IMG/VR virus record: IMGVR_UViG_2671180577_000022
Coordinates: 1-8,399 of that record
Length of the DNA stretch: 8,399 nt
Source of the DNA: a virus
Taxonomy: Duplodnaviria > Heunggongvirae > Uroviricota > Caudoviricetes
Strand: one strand, 5' to 3'
Under the pieces are notes generated by a model that did not search any database, was not told the origin of the DNA, and was given only the letters and a program-made list of their open reading frames with translations. Shown one piece after another: positions 1-8,399 of the stretch. How positions within the stretch are numbered: position 1 is the first letter of the stretch; the number at the start of each line of letters is the position of its first letter. Both the position numbers and the translations under genes were made by a program.

Positions 1-27
1 CATTCCAGCAACGGATCTGGAGGTAAT

Positions 28-1077
28 GTGCGGGTATTACTTCGACCTGTTCTGGTACCGGAACTCGGTCTGGTTATCGTTAAGCCAGGCCGTGAATCAA
101 TGTCAGCATTCCATAACGGCAGAATACTGGTGGAGCCGGAACCAAAAAGCATGCGAGCTCTGCCGTCCGGGGTTGTACCTGCCGTTCACCAGCCGCTGGC
201 GGAAGATAAATCACTACTGCCATTTTTCAGCGATGAGCGGGTGATCCGTGCTGCGGGTGGCGCTGGTGCACTGTCTGACTGGTTATTACGTCACGTGAAA
301 TCCTGCCAGTGGCTACACGGTGATTATCATCACAGCGAAACCGTCATTCACCGTTACGGTACCGGCGCGATGGTGTTGTGCTGGCACTGCGACAACCAGC
401 TGCGGGAGCAGACATCTGATTCACTGGATCAACTTGCTCAACAGAATCTGGCCGCCTGGATGATTGACATCATCCGTCACGCAATGAATGGCGCACAGGA
501 GCGTGAATTATCTCTGGCTGAATTATCCTGGTGGGCGGTCCGCAATCAGGTGGCGGACGCGCTACCGGAAGCGGTATTACGTCTTTCGCTGGGGTTGCGT
601 GCGGAAAAAATCCGCTCCGTATACCGTGAAAGCGACATCATACCGGGAGAACAGACCGCCACCAGCATACTGAAGCAGCGCACAAAAAATATTGCGCTAC
701 CGTCTCACACCCACCAGCAACAGAACCCACCACAGGAAAAGACGGTGGTCAGCATTGCCGTTGATCCGGAGTCTCCGGAATCCTTCATGAAACGACCTAA
801 ACGTCGCCTCTGGGTAAATGAGAAATACACACGCTGGGTAAAGACACAGCCGTGTGCGTGTTGTGGTAAGCCAGCGGACGATCCTCATCATCTGATTGGT
901 CATGGTCAGGGCGGAATGGGAACAAAATCCCACGATATTTTCACGCTACCGCTGTGTCGGGAGCATCACAACGAGCTTCATGCGGATCCGCTGGCGTTCG
1001 AAGAAAAGCATGGTTCCCAGGTTGATTTAATTTTTCGTTTTCTTGATCACGCTTTTGCAACCGGCGTGCTCGGGTAA
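28..1077 (+). CDS. DUF968/YdfU-like prophage protein (349 aa) with Cys/His-rich C-terminus
   Basis: Long ORF starting at GTG 28 with GGAGG at 20-24; frame is open to the window start so the true start could lie upstream or at ATG 100. Length matches the 349-aa Qin prophage YdfU as I recall it. C-terminus shows PCACCGKP ... DDPHHLIGHG ... LCREHHNELH, an HNH/zinc-finger-like cluster. Stop TAA 1075-1077 lies 12 nt before rusA. Confidence 0.75.
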   Translation: MRVLLRPVLVPELGLVIVKPGRESMSAFHNGRILVEPEPKSMRALPSGVVPAVHQPLAEDKSLLPFFSDERVIRAAGGAGALSDWLLRHVKSCQWLHGDYHHSETVIHRYGTGAMVLCWHCDNQLREQTSDSLDQLAQQNLAAWMIDIIRHAMNGAQERELSLAELSWWAVRNQVADALPEAVLRLSLGLRAEKIRSVYRESDIIPGEQTATSILKQRTKNIALPSHTHQQQNPPQEKTVVSIAVDPESPESFMKRPKRRLWVNEKYTRWVKTQPCACCGKPADDPHHLIGHGQGGMGTKSHDIFTLPLCREHHNELHADPLAFEEKHGSQVDLIFRFLDHAFATGVLG

Positions 1078-1089
1078 AAGAGGTTACTG

Positions 1090-1461
1090 ATGCGTATAGA
1101 GTTTGTTTTGCCTTACCCGCCGACGGTGAACACCTACTGGCGACGTCGTGGCAGCACATATTTTGTATCAAAAGCCGGTGAGCGTTATCGCCGGGCTGTG
1201 GCGCTTATTGTTCGCCAGCAGCGGCTGAAATTAAGCCTGTCCGGACGGCTGGCAATAAAAATTATTGCAGAACCACCGGATAAGCGCCGCCGTGACCTGG
1301 ACAACATTCTGAAAGCACCGCTGGATGCGCTGACGCATGCGGAAGTGCTCATTGATGACGAGCAGTTTGATGAAATCAATATTGTGCGCGGTCAGCCTGT
1401 GCCAGGTGGACGGCTGGGCGTGAAGATTTACGAAATCAGAGGTGGTAACGATGGCGCGTGA
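1090..1461 (+). CDS. rusA: RusA-family Holliday junction resolvase
   Basis: 123-aa ORF with AAGAGG 7 nt upstream of ATG 1090. Protein carries the RusA-type acidic catalytic core ([20 protein letters not shown]) and is the size of RusA (~120 aa). It sits immediately upstream of Q as in DLP12 and phage 82. Confidence 0.9.
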
Positions 1462-1822
1462 TATCCAGATGGTTCTTGAGCGATGGGGGGCATGGGCAGC
1501 AAATAATCATGAAGATGTAACATGGCCCTCGATAGCTGCTGGTTTTAAAGGATTAATCCCGACTAAAGTGAAATCACGTCCTCAGTGTTCTGATGATGAC
1601 GCCATGATAATTTGTGGTTGTATGGCACGATTAAACAAGAATAATCAGTATTTGCACGATTTGTTGGTGGATTATTACGTAGGTGGAATGACATTTATGG
1701 CTCTTGCACGTAAGCATAGATGTTCTGATGGGCTTATTGGTAAAAGGCTTTATAAAGCGGAAGGTATTATTGAAGGAATGCTTATGGCTCTGAATGTCCG
1801 GTTAGATATGGATATGCGGTAG
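1451..1822 (+). CDS. Q: Late-gene antiterminator Q (phage 82 / QuuD type)
   Basis: ATG 1451 ([23 protein letters not shown]...) preceded by GAGGTGG and overlapping the rusA stop (ATGGCGCGTGA), consistent with translational coupling. The ORF track starts at GTG 1442 in the same frame. Protein resembles E. coli QuuD as I recall it ([21 protein letters not shown]...), ~125 aa. Confidence 0.85.
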
Positions 1823-1913
1823 GGATATATAGTGATGAGGGTTATGTTTTCCGTGTTTATAATTAACATGTTTATTTTTTGATGGTCATGTATTGTGGAA
1901 GGTAGATAAAATG

Positions 1914-1942
1914 TTGCCTGGTGAATTGAAAATATTGATAAT
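1914..1942 (+). promoter_or_regulatory. Candidate sigma70 promoter (possible pR'-like late promoter) upstream of the CPBP gene
   Basis: TTGCCT (1914-1919), 17-nt spacer, GATAAT (1937-1942), about 30 nt upstream of the CPBP start. A second candidate has a perfect -10 TATAAT at 1858-1863 with a weak -35. Position just downstream of Q matches where pR'/qut lie in lambdoid phages. Not verified. Confidence 0.35.
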
Positions 1943-1973
1943 CAATCTTCATCATTAAATAAAAGGAGTGCTT

Positions 1974-2792
1974 ATGTGGATTGTGTTAGTACTGTCACTG
2001 TCAACTCTCAGTTGGCATAAGGTAGTGGCTTTTTCATTGTTGACGGTGTCTGTTGTCCTGGCTGTGCTTAATGATATTATTGATTGGTCGGTGTTATTTT
2101 TTGTTGCTACAATCGTTTTTTTTATTATTTTGAAGTTCAACTGGAAATATAACGCCTGGGCTAAATCTATATATGAAGTTGGCATAGTTTTATCAGCCAT
2201 AGCATTATCTTTCCATCTATGGCCAGGGTTTCACAATCCTGTAGTGCTAAATTCTGTTACTGTTGGCCCTCAAAGTACTCCCTATACAATGTATTTTAAT
2301 TTTGATAAAGCGCTGGTGCCATTTTTGTTAGTCCTGTGTACATCTTCTTTGTTTAAAAAAGAAGTAAAATCAGAAGTGTCTTTGTGGAAGTGGGGGGCTC
2401 TGTCGCTCTCTGTTCCTCTTATCCTGTTTTTGGCTGTTTTTTTTGGTGGATTAAAGCCAGAGATTCATTTTCCTGAGTGGTTGCCAGAGTTTATATTGGC
2501 TAATTTGTTTTTTGTGTCTCTGGCAGAGGAATCATTATTTAGAGGGTATATTCAATCACGGCTATCAGAAGTAACGTCTCCATTGGTTGCATTAATTGTG
2601 GCGGCTTTGTTGTTTGGTTTTTATCACTATTCAGGTGGTGCTTTACTTGTATTATTTGCCACGTTATCTGGTGTTGTGTATGGATTGTCATGGATGTGGA
2701 GTGGGCGTTTGTGGGTTGCCACCCTTTTCCATTTTGGTTTGAATCTGTGTCACTTGTTATTCTTTACCTATCCATTTTTAAAACATAATTGA
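1974..2792 (+). CDS. CPBP-family (CAAX protease / Abi-type) intramembrane protease, polytopic membrane protein
   Basis: ATG 1974 with GGAG 5 nt upstream (ORF track starts at in-frame GTG 1968). Highly hydrophobic multi-TM sequence. All three CPBP/PF02517 signature motifs are present: EExxxR (AEESLFRGY), FxxxH (LFGFYHY) and HxxxN (FHFGLNLCH). Visibly AT-rich compared with flanking core genes. Confidence 0.8.
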   Translation: MWIVLVLSLSTLSWHKVVAFSLLTVSVVLAVLNDIIDWSVLFFVATIVFFIILKFNWKYNAWAKSIYEVGIVLSAIALSFHLWPGFHNPVVLNSVTVGPQSTPYTMYFNFDKALVPFLLVLCTSSLFKKEVKSEVSLWKWGALSLSVPLILFLAVFFGGLKPEIHFPEWLPEFILANLFFVSLAEESLFRGYIQSRLSEVTSPLVALIVAALLFGFYHYSGGALLVLFATLSGVVYGLSWMWSGRLWVATLFHFGLNLCHLLFFTYPFLKHN

Positions 2793-2933
2793 TTTTTTCT
2801 ATGGTTTTAAATTTATAAGACTGAAAAATAGCAGGACGTGACATTTGCATGAAAAATATGCACGGCAAAGCATTTACGTACGTAAAAAATCAGGTATGCT
2901 GTTAAGAGTGGTTATTTCGCCGCATAGCTTGAC

Positions 2934-2956
2934 CCCGCCTCTGAGCGGGTTTTTTG
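2934..2956 (+). terminator. Candidate Rho-independent terminator downstream of the CPBP gene
   Basis: Stem CCCGC (2934-2938) / GCGGG (2945-2949), 6-nt loop, followed by TTTTTT (2950-2955). Short GC stem, so moderate strength. Confidence 0.5.
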
Positions 2957-3078
2957 TGCCCGCAAAGTAGCGCAGTGCGTTAAATGTGCTGGTAGTTATT
3001 AATACAGGTCTTTCAGCTTGCTGGCTTTTTCGGCAAGAGTTATTGGTGTGTCACGTTAACCGGAAAGGGTAAAAAGAC

Positions 3079-3276
3079 ATGCTGAAACAGCAGGATATGA
3101 CAGAAACCGCCAGAGTTGTGTTTGATGAATTAAGCGTCACCGAACCGGCGACAGTCGGGGAGATTGCGCAGAATACTTACCTTTCACGCGAACGCTGCCA
3201 GTTAATACTGACCCAGCTTGTTATGGCGGGTCTGGCAGACTATCAGTGCGGTTGTTACAGACGCCTTCAGTCCTGA
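3079..3276 (+). CDS. Small winged-helix DNA-binding protein, PapI/FaeA-like (65 aa)
   Basis: ATG 3079 with GGAAAGGG upstream. Central segment TVGEIAQNTYLSRERCQLILTQLVMAGLA follows the PapI/FaeA-type pattern (T-x-EIA ... S ... L-x-x-L-x-x-AG). Stop overlaps an intrinsic terminator. Confidence 0.6.
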   Translation: MLKQQDMTETARVVFDELSVTEPATVGEIAQNTYLSRERCQLILTQLVMAGLADYQCGCYRRLQS

Positions 3277-3288
3277 AGGCTTTTTTAT
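3263..3288 (+). terminator. Candidate Rho-independent terminator after the small wHTH gene
   Basis: Stem GCCTTCA (3263-3269) / TGAAGGC (3274-3280), loop GTCC, followed by TTTTTTATTT. Confidence 0.55.
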
Positions 3289-3413
3289 TTGTGGTAAATG
3301 GGCGGCTGGTGGGTGTTAGCGGCACCTGTCAGTCCTTTGCTTATGTGTTGATGATAATTTACCTTTTGGGGCTATAATTGAACTAACCAATTGCTAATGA
3401 AAGTAAAATTATA

Positions 3414-4127
3414 ATGGTTGTTGTCTGTTCAGTTATCATGGTTTGCTCCCCAATTAATATTTTTCTTGAAAAGGATACGTTGTCACTTAAGCCCGGCTCA
3501 GTCGTTCTGGCCACCAAATGCATCAGGGCGCTTTTCCTTATGCATTATGGCAAAGTTAAAATTTTCGATATAAACCATTCCATAGTAAGTCAATATCTGG
3601 AAATTCAGCATAAGCTGACAAGAACTCATCTGACTGACGTTCCGCTTTATCTGTCACTGGAACCCAACAACCCTGCGTTGGCTGAGGCTTTAATTACCAG
3701 CCAGAGATTTTCCGGAGATACCACGGATATGTTTCTTATGATGGCATGCCTGTCGCTGTTTGAATCAGATGAACGGATATTATTATTTTTAAGTGGATGT
3801 TTATCCAGTATAAGTGCCAAAGTCAGGGCGATAATTCAGACAGATATATCAGCAAGCTGGACGCTTGGTGCGATTGCGTTACGCCTGCATATGAGTGAGA
3901 GTTTGTTAAAGATAAAACTGAAAAATGAAGGGCACATGTTCAGTCGCTTGTTGCTGGAAGAGCGGATGCGTGTTGCTGTGAATATGTTATGTTCCCGGCA
4001 TGGATATGGACAGGCTGTAGCAGAAAAATGCGGTTATTCAAGCTGGTCCTACTTTATTTCTGTATTTCACCGCTATTATGGCTTCCCGCCAGACAGATAT
4101 GTATCCAGGCAAGGGCTTGATTATTGA
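3414..4127 (+). CDS. AraC/XylS-family transcriptional regulator (prophage-encoded; start uncertain)
   Basis: C-terminal ~100 aa form a typical AraC-type double HTH (WTLGAIALRLHMSESLLKIKLKNEGHMFSRLLLEERMRVAVNMLCS ... CGYSSWSYFISVFHRYYGFPPDRY). No good SD precedes any candidate start (3414, 3438, 3540), so the N-terminus is uncertain. AT-rich, as is usual for H-NS-silenced AppY/YdeO/GadX-like regulators. Confidence 0.75.
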   Translation: MVVVCSVIMVCSPINIFLEKDTLSLKPGSVVLATKCIRALFLMHYGKVKIFDINHSIVSQYLEIQHKLTRTHLTDVPLYLSLEPNNPALAEALITSQRFSGDTTDMFLMMACLSLFESDERILLFLSGCLSSISAKVRAIIQTDISASWTLGAIALRLHMSESLLKIKLKNEGHMFSRLLLEERMRVAVNMLCSRHGYGQAVAEKCGYSSWSYFISVFHRYYGFPPDRYVSRQGLDY

Positions 4128-4155
4128 TTTTCATCTGATTATTATTTTTTGACCC

Positions 4156-4231
4156 GGCCCTTTAGCTCAGTGGTGAGAGCGAGCGACTCATAATCGCCAG
4201 GTCGCTGGTTCAAATCCAGCAAGGGCCACCA
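4156..4231 (+). tRNA. ileZ: tRNA-Ile2 (anticodon CAU, lysidine-type; formally also Met-like)
   Basis: Manual cloverleaf: acceptor GGCCCTT/AAGGGCC, D-stem GCTC/GAGC, anticodon loop CTCATAA, T-loop TTCAAAT, encoded CCA. Close to E. coli ileX as I recall it. One A-C mispair at 27-43. Confidence 0.85.
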
Positions 4232-4238
4232 TCACATA

Positions 4239-4315
4239 CCGCCATTAGCTCATCAGGAAAGAGCGCCAGCTTTCGAAGCTGGTTGCGCGGAGTTCGGGTC
4301 CCCGAAGGCGGTCCA
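4239..4315 (+). tRNA. argN: tRNA-Arg (anticodon UCG), non-canonical; possibly degenerate
   Basis: Manual fold: D-stem GCTC/GAGC, anticodon stem CCAGC/GCTGG with loop TTTCGAA (anticodon TCG), encoded CCA. Has an A-A mismatch at acceptor 6-67, an A-C mismatch in the T-stem, and T-loop TTCGGGT (G at the normally A58 position). Position between ileZ and argO matches the Stx-phage tRNA cluster. Confidence 0.5.
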
Positions 4316-4328
4316 TTATCTGTATCCT

Positions 4329-4405
4329 GCGTTGTTAGCTCAGCCGGACAGAGCAATTGCCTTCTAAGCAATCGGTCACTGGTTCGAATCCAGTACAACG
4401 CGCCA
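4329..4405 (+). tRNA. argO: tRNA-Arg (anticodon UCU), reads AGA/AGG rare codons
   Basis: Perfect cloverleaf: acceptor GCGTTGT/ACAACGC, D-stem GCTC/GAGC, anticodon stem ATTGC/GCAAT with loop CTTCTAA, T-arm ACTGG-TTCGAAT-CCAGT, encoded CCA. Confidence 0.85.
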
Positions 4406-4419
4406 CACTTATTTTCCCT

Positions 4420-4445
4420 GGCTCGCTTTTGTGGGCCTTTTTTTT
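4420..4445 (+). terminator. Candidate Rho-independent terminator following the tRNA cluster
   Basis: Stem GGCUCGC / GUGGGCC (7 bp including two G-U wobbles), loop TTTT, followed by a run of 8 T (4438-4445). Confidence 0.5.
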
Positions 4446-4499
4446 AAATGTCTCACAATTCAGGCGGTTGACTGTTGTCTGGTTTGCGGGGAGTTTGTT

Positions 4500-4676
4500 A
4501 AAAGAAACTGGCATGGTGAATCCCCCTGTGCGGAGGGGCAATCAGCGAGTAGGTATATGGGATAATCGCGGATTCAGGTGCTGGTACTGAATTCACCGGG
4601 AGGCACCCGGCACCATGCAATGGCACATAGCGCCACTCTCCAGCCCCTCTCCGGAGGGGCTGTTTATATTGATTTT
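4500..4676 (+). ncRNA. Candidate structured small RNA or multi-hairpin regulatory element ending in an intrinsic terminator
   Basis: Four consecutive stem-loops with no ORF: CCCCT/AGGGG (4522-4537); GGATTCAG/CTGAATTC (4570-4594); CCGGG/CCCGG (4596-4610); AGCCCCTC/GAGGGGCT (4642-4661) followed by a T-rich tail GTTTATATTGATTTT. The first and last hairpins share a CGGAGGGGC core. Confidence 0.3.
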
Positions 4677-4696
4677 GTCAGATGTGAGTAAACTCC

Positions 4697-5032
4697 TTAT
4701 GGACTTTGTTGTTTTAGCCCATAAGGACATATTTGCAGAGTGCAACGGTTATTAAAGCATTCATTCAATACGTTATCTGTATTTGTAGGGCATTCCTGGC
4801 TGTTTTTGATTAAATTCCAGAATGTTTTATTGAATGGTACTACGTTGTAAATGGTTACAGGTAGCACTTTGTTATTGAGCATGATGCCTGTGTGAGTCAG
4901 TGTAAATATACTTTCAGGAGGTAAGAAAGCATCCGATTGATACCAGATTATTAATTTTATTTTACTCCATATGACTGAAAAAGATATTCCGCATGATGGC
5001 TGGATAACTGTATCAATCACAATCCACTTCAT
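4697..5032 (-). CDS. Hypothetical orphan protein (111 aa), only minus-strand gene candidate in the window
   Basis: 111-codon ORF in very AT-rich DNA, where stop codons are frequent by chance. Minus-strand start context AAGGAAACTAAATG gives a plausible SD with ~5-nt spacing. No recognisable motif, signal peptide or lipobox. Confidence 0.4.
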
Positions 5033-5052
5033 TTAGTTTCCTTGTTTATGCC

Positions 5053-5080
5053 TTGCTGGTGATGTTCTGAAAAGTATAAA
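5053..5080 (+). promoter_or_regulatory. Candidate sigma70 promoter upstream of nanS-p
   Basis: TTGCTG (5053-5058), 16-nt spacer, TATAAA (5075-5080) in the AT-rich intergenic region; a divergent promoter for the minus-strand ORF may share this region. Unverified. Confidence 0.3.
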
Positions 5081-5277
5081 TGATATTTTTGATTGTAAAC
5101 CATAGAGCAGAATTATTTTTCTGATGTTGTTTATTGTTTATTTAAATGCAGGGTGGTTTATATCTCGTCTTGTAGTTTATCCATGCATATCTGCTTGATG
5201 ATGAGGTTTTTATTTAAGGTATGGTTTTGTGTTTTTTCTGTATTACATGTCAGGTATTTTAAAGAATCATTTTTCAG

Positions 5278-7146
5278 ATGGTGGAAAGAACCATGGCATT
5301 TAAACACTATGATGTTGTCAGGGCGGCGTCGCCGTCAGATCTTGCGGAAAAGCTGACACATAAACTGAAAGAGGGCTGGCAGCCGTTTGGTAGTCCGGTG
5401 GCCATAACCCCTTATACCCTGATGCAGGCGATTGCAGCAGAAGGTGATGTGGTGGTCAGTGGTGCAACTGAGCCGGATTGGTACTACGTCATCGTACTGG
5501 CCGGGCAGTCCAATGCCATGGCTTACGGTGAAGGGCTTCCGCTGCCGGATTCATACGATGCGCCCCATCCGCGCATTAAGCAACTGGCCCGTCGTAACAC
5601 AGTGACTCCCGGTGGTGAAGTATGCGTATTTAACGACATCATTCCTGCTGACCATTGTCTGCATGATGTTCAGGATATGAGTACGATTAACCATCCCCGG
5701 GCTGACCTGAGCAAAGGGCAGTACGGCTGTGTCGGACAGGGCTTACATATTGCCAAAAAACTGCTTCCGTATATCCCTAATAACGCGGGGATCCTGCTGG
5801 TACCATGCTGTCGTGGTGGTTCGGCATTCACCCAGGGCACGGAGGGGACATTCAGCGAGTCCACGGGGGCCAGTCAGGATTCGGCTCGCTGGGGAGTGGG
5901 TAAGCCGTTATATCAGGATCTGCTTTTCCGCACGAAGGCAGCATTGCAGAAAAACCCGAAAAACGTTTTGCTGGCGATATGCTGGATGCAGGGGGAATTC
6001 GATATGACGAATGCCAGTTACGCCCAGCAGCCAGCAGCATTTCTTGCAATGGTACAGCAGTTCCGTGCTGACCTTGCCGGGCTGGCGGCGCAGTGTCACG
6101 GTGGAAGTCCGGCATCAGTCCCCTGGATTTGTGGCGACACGACATACGCGTGGAAACAAGAACACGGTACGCAATATGAAGTGGTATATGGTGCATATAA
6201 AGGTAAAGAATCCCAGCAGATTTATTTTGTTCCCTTTATGACCGATGGTAGCGGAGTTAATACACCGACAAACAACCCGTCAGAAGATCCTGATATTGTC
6301 GGGTCTGGTTATTACGGTTCGGCATCCCGAACGAACAAAAACTGGGTATCATCAAATCGCCCGACGCATTTCAGCTCATGGGCGCGTCGTGGCATTATTC
6401 CCGATCGTATGGCAACTGCTATTCTGAACGTAGCCGGTCGCACCTTAGCCTTCATTAGTGGTAAGGCACCGGAAATCAAACCCTCGCCCGGCGGCGACAC
6501 GCCATCGGGGCCGTCTGAAGATGCATCCATACGCACAATCTCCCTGTTGCCGACAGCCGGAGACGCTGCTGCGCAGGGCTGGAGCATTAAGAATGGCGGA
6601 ATTCAGTTGTCGGGTGGTGTATTTAAGATCGCCAAGCAGAGCAATAAAACCTGGTCCCTGACGCGCCCGGTGGATGACGCAGTCTCCCTGCTGACACGGG
6701 GTGGCAGACTGAGCTGTAAGTTTCGACTGTCAGGCGCACTGACCAACAACCAGTTCGGTCTGGGAATTTATCTGTATACCGATGTAGCGTTACCTGACGT
6801 CGTGGCGATGACCGGGACTGGTAACCCGTTCCTGATGTCGTTCTTCACCCAGACCACAGACGGCAAACTGAATCTGATGCATCACAAGAAAGCCGGAAAC
6901 ACAAAGTTGGGCGAGTTCGGGAATTACAGTAACGACTGGCAGACGCTGGAGCTGGTGTTCACCGCCGGCAGTGCCACGGTTACTCCGAAACTGAATGGAG
7001 TGGCTGGCCCGGCATTCCAGGTCATAAAAGACAGTCTGACAGTGGGACTAAATGCACTGACGCTGACGGATATTACCAAAAATGCAACGTATGGCGTTGA
7101 GATAGAAAGTCTGGTGCTGGAGATAAATGCACCGGCATCATCATAA
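5278..7146 (+). CDS. nanS-p: Prophage sialate O-acetylesterase NanS-p (N-terminal DUF1737, SGNH/SASA esterase domain, C-terminal extension)
   Basis: 622-aa ORF; alternative start ATG 5293 (MAFKHYDVV...) has the better SD (GGAAAG). SGNH/SASA active-site block [16 protein letters not shown] is present. Location just upstream of the holin matches NanS-p genes of Stx and non-Stx lambdoid prophages. Confidence 0.9.
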
Positions 7147-7231
7147 AAAGTGAGCCAGCCAAATGGAAGGTATCGTTAAACTCACCGGTAGTGTCAGTGG
7201 GTCGTCTGAGACGCCTGCATGAGTTATCAGA

Positions 7232-7262
7232 GCCATCAGTACTTAACTGGTGGCTTTTTTAT
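7232..7262 (+). terminator. Candidate Rho-independent terminator between nanS-p and the holin gene
   Basis: Stem GCCAUCAG (7232-7239) / CUGGUGGC (7247-7254) with one G-U pair, loop TACTTAA, followed by TTTTTTATTG. Confidence 0.5.
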
Positions 7263-7295
7263 TGTTGTCAGCTTCCGGATAACGGGAGACGGGGT

Positions 7296-7511
7296 ATGTA
7301 CCAGATGGAAAAAATCACAACAGGTGTGTCATACACCACGTCAGCGGTGGGAACGGGCTACTGGTTCCTGCAGTTGCTGGACAGGGTTTCCCCGTCTCAG
7401 TGGGCGGCAATAGGCGTGCTGGGGAGTCTGCTGTTTGGGCTGCTGACATATCTGACTAACCTGTATTTCAAAATCAGAGAGGACCGTCGTAAGGCGGCAC
7501 GGGGAGAGTAA
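7296..7511 (+). CDS. S: Class II holin, S21/EssQ-like pinholin (71 aa) with dual-start motif
   Basis: ATG 7296 with GGGAG 7 nt upstream. Protein [71 protein letters not shown] is near-identical to phage 21 / Qin / 933W S as I recall them. Met1 and Met4 form the classic antiholin/holin dual start. The ORF-track start at 7191 is an upstream in-frame extension. Confidence 0.9.
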
Positions 7512-7515
7512 TTCA

Positions 7516-7866
7516 ATGACTCAAAACTATGAACTGATTGTGAAAGGGATCCGCAATTTTGAGAATAAAGTTACGGTAACTTTAGCGTTACGGGACAAAA
7601 AACGCTTTGACGGTGAAATTTTTGACCTGGACATCTCGCTGGACCGTGTTGAAGGTGCCGCGCTGGAGTTTTATGAGGCAGCAGCCAGAAGGAGCATCAG
7701 ACAGGTCTTCCTGGATGTTGCTGCCGGGTTATGTGAAGGGGATGAGCAGTCGCCGGAAAAGCGCCCCGTAATTTTAGAGGCGCAGAATGTGTGGATAACC
7801 TACAAAGGAAAGCTACCAGGAAGAATTACTGGTTCTCTGAAGACTCCTCCGGAATCACAACCTTAA
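7516..7866 (+). CDS. Hypothetical phage protein (116 aa) between holin and endolysin (YdfR-like position)
   Basis: ATG 7516 lies 4 nt after the holin stop with GGGGAGAG upstream; same strand and tightly packed within the lysis cassette. Qin-type cassettes carry a small gene (ydfR) in this slot; similarity not verified. Confidence 0.6.
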   Translation: MTQNYELIVKGIRNFENKVTVTLALRDKKRFDGEIFDLDISLDRVEGAALEFYEAAARRSIRQVFLDVAAGLCEGDEQSPEKRPVILEAQNVWITYKGKLPGRITGSLKTPPESQP

Positions 7867-7929
7867 GTCACTGACCAGAACAGATAAACCTGTCCGTGGG
7901 CAGAAACCGATAAATCCTGATAAATATCC

Positions 7930-8399
7930 ATGAACGCAAAAATCAGATACGGCCTGTCGGCTGCCGTTCTGGCACTGATTGCCGTCGGTGCGCCCGCGCC
8001 TGATATTCTCGACCAGTTTCTGGATGAAAAAGAGGGTAACCACACTACGGCATACCGCGATGGTTCCGGCATCTGGACCATCTGTCGGGGGGCCACGATG
8101 GTGGATGGAAAACCCGTTTTTCCCGGTATGAAACTGTCGAAGGAAAAATGCGACCAGGTCAACGCCATTGAGCGTGATAAGGCGCTGGCATGGGTGGAGA
8201 AAAACATCAAAGTGCCATTGAGCGAACCCCAGAAAGCGGGGATCGCGTCATTCTGTCCGTACAACATTGGTCCCGGTAAGTGTTTCCCGTCGACGTTTTA
8301 TAAACGAATTAATGCAGGTGATCGCAGGGGAGCGTGTGAGGCGATTCGCTGGTGGATTAAGGACGGTGGCAGAGACTGCCGTATTCGTTCAAACAACTG
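7930..8399 (+). CDS. R: SAR endolysin (phage lysozyme R, GH24 family), 3' end truncated by window
   Basis: ATG 7930; the ORF track omits it because no stop is reached. Translation MNAKIRYGLSAAVLALIAVGAPAPDILDQFLDEKEGNHTTAYRDGSGIWTICRGAT... has a Gly/Ala-rich N-terminal SAR segment followed by a T4-lysozyme-like catalytic region. Near-identical to 933W/Qin-type R as I recall it; the SAR type pairs with the pinholin. Confidence 0.9.
   Translation, partial: MNAKIRYGLSAAVLALIAVGAPAPDILDQFLDEKEGNHTTAYRDGSGIWTICRGATMVDGKPVFPGMKLSKEKCDQVNAIERDKALAWVEKNIKVPLSEPQKAGIASFCPYNIGPGKCFPSTFYKRINAGDRRGACEAIRWWIKDGGRDCRIRSNN

Follow-up and report, generated by a model that had tools for sequence, protein, structure and literature searches.

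We analysed an 8,399-nt stretch of viral DNA (positions 1 to 8,399 of IMG/VR record IMGVR_UViG_2671180577_000022; referred to here as the window), an 8.4-kb segment with which a lambdoid prophage begins its late region. Within it, the interval 2957-4127 holds a 65-amino-acid (aa) open reading frame (ORF), called here the small ORF or small gene, and an AraC-like ORF, both present and intact. A first-pass annotation, made from the letters of the window without database searches, had described the AraC-like gene as prophage-borne, and this agrees with its location between the antiterminator gene Q (PF06530) and a holin gene (PF04971), adjoining phage tRNA genes and a NanS-p-type esterase gene. 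We found that the AraC-like gene is the known regulator gene psrA. Furthermore, we are confident that the small gene and psrA are two independent units, brought side by side by the layout of the lambdoid late region, and that the small gene is not a partner of PsrA. The coordinates of the features are collected in Table 1.

The AraC-like protein matches, at 237 of 237 residues, what ECs1087 of E. coli O157:H7 Sakai encodes when that gene is read from its upstream ATG, and positions 1-4667 of the window share 98.8% identity with the Sakai prophage Sp4. Because ECs1087 was named psrA by the laboratory that described the Psr regulators (PMC13502914), this sequence identity establishes the AraC-like ORF as the already studied PsrA, and the gene needs no new hypothesis. 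The protein had been assigned at first pass to the PatE/PsrA/PsrB class and proved to be PsrA itself. The same annotation had considered that the ORF might be a frameshifted pseudogene; its intact frame and its identity to PsrA ruled this out. The canonical C-terminal double helix-turn-helix (HTH) of the AraC type was recovered by two Pfam models, both above their cut-offs: HTH_18 at residues 155-230 with 36.6 bits (cut-off 33.6) and HTH_AraC with 35.3 bits (cut-off 26.6). The gene had also been called AT-rich, which is moderately so, its GC content being 0.42 and that of the phage genes flanking it 0.52-0.55.

Profile comparisons also related PsrA to regulators of the core genome. The NCBIfam YdeO model (NF007407) aligned with PsrA residues 1-229 (E=9e-30) and scored 104.1 bits against an equivalog cut-off of 348, whereas the GadX model aligned with the C-terminal half (E=4e-25) and scored 88.5 bits against an equivalog cut-off of 500. 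The comparison with YdeO and GadX proposed at first pass thus gave alignments to both, with scores far under the equivalog cut-offs. By this measure PsrA is a homolog of YdeO and not a YdeO equivalog, as its score lies under the curated cut-off. YdeO and GadX are E. coli AraC-family regulators of the GAD island; PsrA resembles the former over its full length and the latter C-terminally, and according to the literature it belongs to the same target pathway (gadE). PsrA is prophage-borne, whereas YdeO and GadX are encoded in the core genome.

Previous studies have described PsrA (z1789 in EDL933) as an AraC/XylS-family regulator that increases GadE and YhiF expression from the GAD acid-stress island, represses the type III secretion system of the enterocyte effacement locus (LEE) through GadE and YhiF, and contributes to persistence in sheep (PMC10877973, PMC8565820). 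The paralog PsrB, 90% identical to PsrA, binds the promoters of hdeA and gadE and strengthens acid resistance (PMC10877973, PMC8565820). Since the protein is identical, the activity known from the O157:H7 literature, activation of gadE and yhiF with repression of the LEE, would be expected here too: PsrA would act as a YdeO-like AraC/XylS activator of the GAD island regulators and so lower LEE expression. The psr homologs clustered at 88-90% identity, consistent with the reported 90% identity of PsrA and PsrB. Two psr places are present in most of the O157:H7 genomes listed and a single one in others, and Sakai Sp6, which was checked for a second psr copy, has no AraC gene. These observations fit one psrA and one psrB. 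The segment 2800-4200 (1401 nt), which contains the small ORF and psrA, was found at 100% identity in many Shiga toxin-producing E. coli (STEC) genomes of serogroups O26, O103, O111 and O145, suggesting that the PsrA-GadE-LEE circuit of O157:H7 probably applies in these non-O157 serogroups with their identical PsrA. The whole window at ≥99% identity was not found among the complete genomes of the collection. AraC-like proteins with 37-40% identity to PsrA were also seen in sequenced lambda-like phages (records H189-H204, with Lambda_ev phages, mEp332 and ev099); the match falls in the final 2-3 kb of the 46-48-kb lambda-like records and in mid-genome in ev099. These matches indicate that Psr-like cargo genes occur well outside the prophages of pathogenic E. 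coli.

The start codon of psrA had been left uncertain at first pass, on the ground that no Shine-Dalgarno sequence precedes any candidate. We likewise saw no strong Shine-Dalgarno sequence 5' of the window start, while the alignments settled the start itself at ATG 3414. The N-terminal 42 residues are kept in homologs down to 39% identity, starting M-x-V-x-CSVI; the YdeO model aligns from residue 1; and an AGG-type Shine-Dalgarno sequence lies at the equivalent place before this ATG in other psr homologs. In the Sakai annotation (L002), ECs1087 (28803-29390) begins at Met43 and encodes 195 aa. Conservation of residues 1-42 rules out this downstream start and indicates that the annotated Sakai gene is truncated, starting 42 codons late. 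A 5-codon upstream ORF overlapping the psrA start (ATG 3397) was present in the window and in L031, not in L033, and was dropped as not conserved.

The site ATGATA-16-TATAAT upstream of psrA was the best promoter-like site between positions 1700 and 5400, matching at 10 of 12 positions. Its -10 element, TATA[A/C]T, lies about 36 nt upstream of psrA and is invariant 5' of all seven aligned psr homologs, including those with 39-63% protein identity and different upstream genes. Having its own conserved -10 element whatever the upstream gene, psrA looks like a self-contained moron, that is, a cargo gene in a prophage that is expressed on its own. It would be expressed in the lysogen from this candidate promoter and run into the tRNA genes ileZ-argN-argO. 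The psrA stop is 28 nt away from the first tRNA gene, and only after the third tRNA gene is there another terminator-like site; co-transcription of psrA with the tRNAs is possible.

As judged from its pattern of conservation, the small ORF is a genuine protein-coding gene. Its product matched the phage family phrog_331 over residues 1-64 (E=6e-37, 126.7 bits) and had 300 homologs at E≤0.01. The sources of the 120 homologs listed include Escherichia, Shigella, Salmonella, Klebsiella, Citrobacter and Buttiauxella, to which the locus scan added Kluyvera, Enterobacter, Proteus and others; sequenced phages with the gene include phiP27, SfV, Stx2a phages, 1720a-02, mEp460 and the cdtI phage. Across the conserved family the protein is 63-65 aa long. 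It could be argued that the 65 codons are not translated and are conserved as an RNA leader of the late transcript or on account of DNA signals (for example terminators and Chi sites), given the very high nucleotide conservation, the terminators on both sides of the ORF and the conserved structured Chi element 3' of it. This explanation is extremely improbable, because pairwise differences pile up at codon position 3 (8962, compared with 3639 at position 1 and 2838 at position 2), the frame is open in 24 of 24 other loci examined from about 20 species, homologs with 47-57% protein identity in other phages have the same length, and an SD-like (Shine-Dalgarno-like) AAGGG lies 9 nt 5' of the ATG. 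The ORF ends inside the hairpin GCCTTCAG-TCCT-GAAGGC (arms GCCTTCAG/CTGAAGGC), which is followed by a T-run and conserved in all aligned loci; with this good intrinsic-terminator pattern, the first-pass description of a 65-aa ORF with its own terminator was borne out.

The small protein had further been described as PapI/FaeA-like. We found only generic winged-helix signals and rejected this homology. The best Pfam signal of the window protein was TrmB at 17.8 bits, below the cut-off of 25.6. Among 22 family members, the generic winged-helix models DprA_WH, TrmB and MarR_2 recurred below threshold (best E 6.8e-6, for DprA_WH), and a PapI/FaeA-family model was absent from the Pfam matches at E≤10 for all 22. 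Nor was PapI among the hits at E≤10 when the PDB was searched by profile, and an hhalign profile-sequence comparison with PapI, whose sequence was verified against PDB 2HTJ, gave a probability of 1.5%. The AlphaFold2 model of the protein, which is of moderate quality (pLDDT 66.5), has a three-helix core (helices 5-19, 26-32 and 37-49), and its C-terminal 'wing' appears as a helix of low confidence. The 50 matches that Foldseek listed from the PDB were generic winged-helix domains (Z-alpha, MarR, ArsR, IclR) with every E above 1; 2HTJ was not one of them. Small size and a probable HTH core are common to the small protein and to PapI/FaeA, the Lrp- and Dam-dependent co-regulators of fimbrial phase variation, but the small gene has no sequence, profile or fold match to them and no fimbrial context. 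We infer that the small protein is probably a small winged-helix nucleic-acid binder.

The first-pass annotation had taken the two genes as a new prophage pair, with the small winged-helix protein serving the AraC-like regulator as its PapI-like cofactor or co-regulator, perhaps with a phase-variable output. The genes are indeed adjacent on the same strand, the arrangement recurs in all 726 E. coli genomes with close psr alleles, and the small protein has weak winged-helix signals. However, comparison of the loci showed that the two genes are independent in their distribution and in their predicted transcription signals. The small gene was found in 2140 of 5426 complete E. coli genomes (4059 places) and psr in 726 (1324 places), the former being about three times as common. 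A Psr homolog lay within about 5 kb of the small gene in none of the 24 other loci (3 from E. coli, 21 from other species), and the usual partner of the small gene is a methyltransferase gene. Conversely, more distant psr homologs without the small gene follow directly after Q in L030 and L032; a methyltransferase gene in L027, and a methyltransferase gene plus another gene in L028, stand between the small gene and the psr homolog. The terminator at the end of the small ORF separates it from psrA, and the conserved promoter element of psrA also lies between the two genes. The psrA promoter and the DNA 5' of the small gene share no more than short and weak repeats, and the idea of a shared operator was dropped, as nothing convincing was seen.

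Sakai provided a further line of evidence. There, a 1-nt deletion frameshifts the small ORF beside psrA after residue 49, and this frameshifted copy is annotated as ECs1086 (28343-28582 in L002). The resulting 79-aa allele is present on at least 1000 contigs and carries the UniRef label O157:H7, the lineage in which PsrA was characterised (PMC10877973, PMC8565820, PMC13502914). Together, the missing relation to PapI in the Pfam, PDB-profile, hhalign and Foldseek comparisons, the wider spread of the small gene, its usual methyltransferase neighbour, the psr homologs without it, the separate signals and the frameshift in O157:H7 indicate that the small gene is not a PsrA partner. The proposed pairing in a phase-variation-like circuit is therefore unsupported, and we consider a PapI-like cofactor of PsrA very improbable.

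Four points weigh against independence or the naming of the gene. First, in each of the 726 E. coli genomes that carry a close psr allele, one or more places cover at least 80% of the 1401-nt query spanning the small gene and psrA, and such tight co-inheritance within E. coli leaves a very slight chance of a lineage-specific functional link. Second, other prophages of O157:H7 contain intact small-gene paralogs (at 2 to 4 places in the listed O157 records and as many as 7 in some genomes), so the frameshift beside psrA is no proof that PsrA works without such a protein. Third, the promoter and pR' assignments are predictions from consensus and conservation. Fourth, psrA is z1789 in island OI-50 of EDL933 according to reviews and ecs1087 in Sakai Sp4 according to the Tree laboratory, and the two names presumably denote the same gene. 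Co-option of the small protein as a PsrA co-regulator in E. coli is, in our judgement, much less likely than the methyltransferase-linked role that is considered below.

The surroundings of the small gene point to the start of the late operon. Its position is constant across loci: it is the ORF that comes first behind a strong terminator (2934-2958 in the window), and antiterminators of three different Q families precede it. This terminator is kept at the same position in E. coli and Salmonella prophages of differing Q types. Directly 5' of it, most of the aligned prophages with a PF06530-type Q have a promoter-like block, at any distance to Q, made up of a TAnnnT hexamer in the same alignment column and then the motif GTTAAGAGTGG. 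From this conservation, we read the block and the terminator as candidate pR' and tR'. On this reading, the CPBP gene would separate Q from pR', and the late genes would begin with the small ORF. Standing directly after the candidate pR' and tR', the small ORF would open the Q-dependent late operon and would be transcribed mainly upon induction, when Q allows RNA polymerase to read through tR'; we infer this late-only expression, as we do the promoter assignments. In other prophages with a PF06530-type Q, the gap between Q and pR' holds other cargo genes, some of them on the opposite strand (L006, L031).

The late operon of Stx-type and other lambdoid phages starts with Q, pR'/tR', the small ORF, an M.EcoGII-like methyltransferase gene, tRNA genes, cargo (stx), nanS-p and lysis genes, and the window has the same backbone, with its cargo genes in the interval that holds stx in Stx phages. 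In contrast to the Stx-type late region, the window has psrA instead of the methyltransferase gene, its CPBP protease gene sits between Q and the candidate pR', and toxin genes are absent from it. In one Stx2 prophage (L033, E. coli STEC409, 3167-5824), the small ORF is succeeded in turn by a psr allele with 89% protein identity, the three tRNA genes and stx2AB, after which comes an IraM-like gene. This gene order places a Psr regulator directly upstream of the toxin genes.

The best lead to the role of the small protein is the fixed association of its gene with a methyltransferase gene. In 20 of the 24 loci (L004-L005, L007-L021, L023, L025 and L026), which range from Escherichia to Proteus, we found that a 349-aa beta-class DNA methyltransferase starts 339-349 nt after the small-gene start; two of the four remaining contigs end too early to tell. 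The enzyme is M.EcoGII-like, with the same length of 349 aa, a DPPY catalytic motif and 95% identity to the enzyme of phage 1720a-02, in which the M.EcoGII paper noted a very similar methyltransferase (PMC5778455). The module formed by the small gene and the methyltransferase gene appears to be undescribed so far. In the window, psrA sits in the methyltransferase slot, and a search for a methyltransferase remnant found none. The gene for this adenine methyltransferase is the normal downstream partner of the small gene; it is absent in this prophage lineage, with psrA filling its slot.

These observations raise the possibility that the small protein serves the promiscuous M.EcoGII-type methyltransferase, as a Com- or C-protein-like controller or as a specificity or anti-toxicity factor, perhaps via the stem-loop described below, and that the window copy is an orphan left when psrA replaced the enzyme. 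M.EcoGII is harmful under constitutive expression and silent in lysogens (PMC5778455), which is in line with such a role, as are the fixed spacing and the conserved stem-loop between the two genes. A 'Com-like translational regulator' is annotated at the matched place in an Aeromonas phage (H183) with a homologous methyltransferase, and in O157:H7, which lacks the methyltransferase at this place, the small ORF has decayed. However, phage records with a homologous methyltransferase number 96 and those with the small gene 55, so the enzyme does not need the small gene. Moreover, intact copies of the small ORF stand beside psr in lineages O26, O104:H4 and STEC409 as well as in the window, and ATCC 25922 has an intact small ORF with neither a methyltransferase gene nor psr. 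On balance we hold this proposal unlikely, though worth keeping in view.

The stem-loop lies just 3' of the small-gene terminator, at the same position in 30 loci (L001-L028, L031 and L033), and 27 of these 30 have the Chi octamer GCTGGTGG at the same offset within it. In the Proteus loci a hairpin is retained although its stem has another sequence. Pairing of the 3' arm in the window is mainly via G-U wobbles, the mismatches all being G-U, which points to an RNA structure; covariation is modest, with 2 of the 15 predicted pairs changed on both sides. We also considered whether the small protein might use the stem-loop as its DNA operator. This is unlikely, because in Proteus the stem has changed while the putative recognition helix is nearly the same, and because the G-U pairing in the window indicates RNA. 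In a more specific form of the methyltransferase link, the phrog_331 protein would be a widely conserved first late gene product of lambdoid phages that works with the M.EcoGII-type enzyme, for example as a Com-like transcriptional or post-transcriptional gate acting on the Chi stem-loop, the window copy being an orphan. We regard this version as doubtful and speculative. If true, such a gate would hold the toxic methyltransferase off until late infection, and to our knowledge nothing is known about how phages control M.EcoGII-type enzymes. The module may merit a modest follow-up of its own, since these enzymes are toxic and widely used as tools.

Chi octamers occur four times in the window, at 659-666 (-), 711-718 (-), 3305-3312 (+) and 8348-8355 (+). 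The number expected from shuffled sequences was 0.26, and none of 200 shuffles reached four.

Table 1. Genes and predicted signals of the 8,399-nt window, in order of position
Feature	Position	Strand	Evidence or remark
DUF968 protein	28-1077	+	
RusA	1090-1461	+	
Q antiterminator, PF06530 type	1442-1822	+	
CPBP/CAAX-type intramembrane protease gene	1968-2792	+	AT-rich, GC 0.38
Candidate pR'	2873..2900	+	-35 TTTACG 2873-2878, -10 TATGCT 2895-2900, then conserved early-transcribed motif GTTAAGAGTGG
Candidate tR', intrinsic terminator CCCGC-CTCTGA-GCGGG + T6	2934..2958	+	Terminator scan, hairpin fold
Small ORF, 65 aa, phrog_331, first ORF 3' of tR'	3079..3276	+	Family profile match
Intrinsic terminator overlapping the small-ORF stop codon	3263..3288	+	Terminator scan, hairpin fold
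Conserved stem-loop with Chi octamer GCTGGTGG (3305-3312) in its 5' arm	3297..3341	+	Alignment, consensus fold
Candidate sigma-70 promoter of psrA, ATGATA-16-TATAAT	3351..3378	+	Promoter scan, conservation
psrA, AraC/XylS-family YdeO-like regulator, 237 aa	3414..4127	+	Protein identity, Pfam, NCBIfam
Three tRNA genes (ileZ-type CAT anticodon, Arg-TCG, Arg-TCT)	4156..4405	+	ARAGORN, Rfam; RefSeq tRNA-Ile/Arg/Arg
Terminator-like site + T8, after the third tRNA gene	4420-4437	+	Terminator scan
STnc100-family small RNA	4482-4671	+	Rfam
IraM-like ORF	4697-5032	-	
NanS-p-type sialate esterase	5278-7146	+	
Holin (PF04971)	about 7308-7511	+	

The gene order of Sakai Sp4 is that of the window: DUF968, RusA, Q, the CAAX protease, ECs1086 (the small ORF), ECs1087 (psrA), three tRNA genes (ileZ-argN-argO) and the esterase. 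The window does not come from O157:H7, and the two differ in that the DNA 3' of the tRNA genes diverges, with 84% identity in the esterase gene, and in that the small ORF is intact in the window and frameshifted in Sakai. The value of the analysis lies mainly in clarification, as it assigns the AraC-like gene to a known regulator and corrects two Sakai annotations, the start of psrA and the frameshifted ECs1086.

Several further features lie beside psrA. Between the tRNA genes and the esterase gene, a match to the STnc100 family scored 132 bits (cut-off 47) and ends at a terminator at 4641-4662. In EDL933, the LEE-regulating small RNA EvrS (Esr023, 154 nt) maps between z1789 and the esterase gene z1793 (PMC11774850). 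The STnc100 match in the window is at the place that corresponds to EvrS of EDL933. The minus-strand ORF that follows encodes 111 aa, has a GC content of 0.35, scored 158 bits with the NCBIfam IraM subfamily model (cut-off 121) and recurs in the same interval of prophages L003, L004, L007 and L033. IraM is an anti-adapter that stabilises RpoS. The first tRNA gene (4156-4231) was called tRNA-Met (CAT) by ARAGORN, and the identical gene is tRNA-Ile (ileZ) in RefSeq; we interpret the ileZ label as what would be expected if the CAT anticodon is lysidine-modified. ATA codons are comparatively frequent in psrA (7 of 238 codons) and in the IraM-like ORF (6 of 112).

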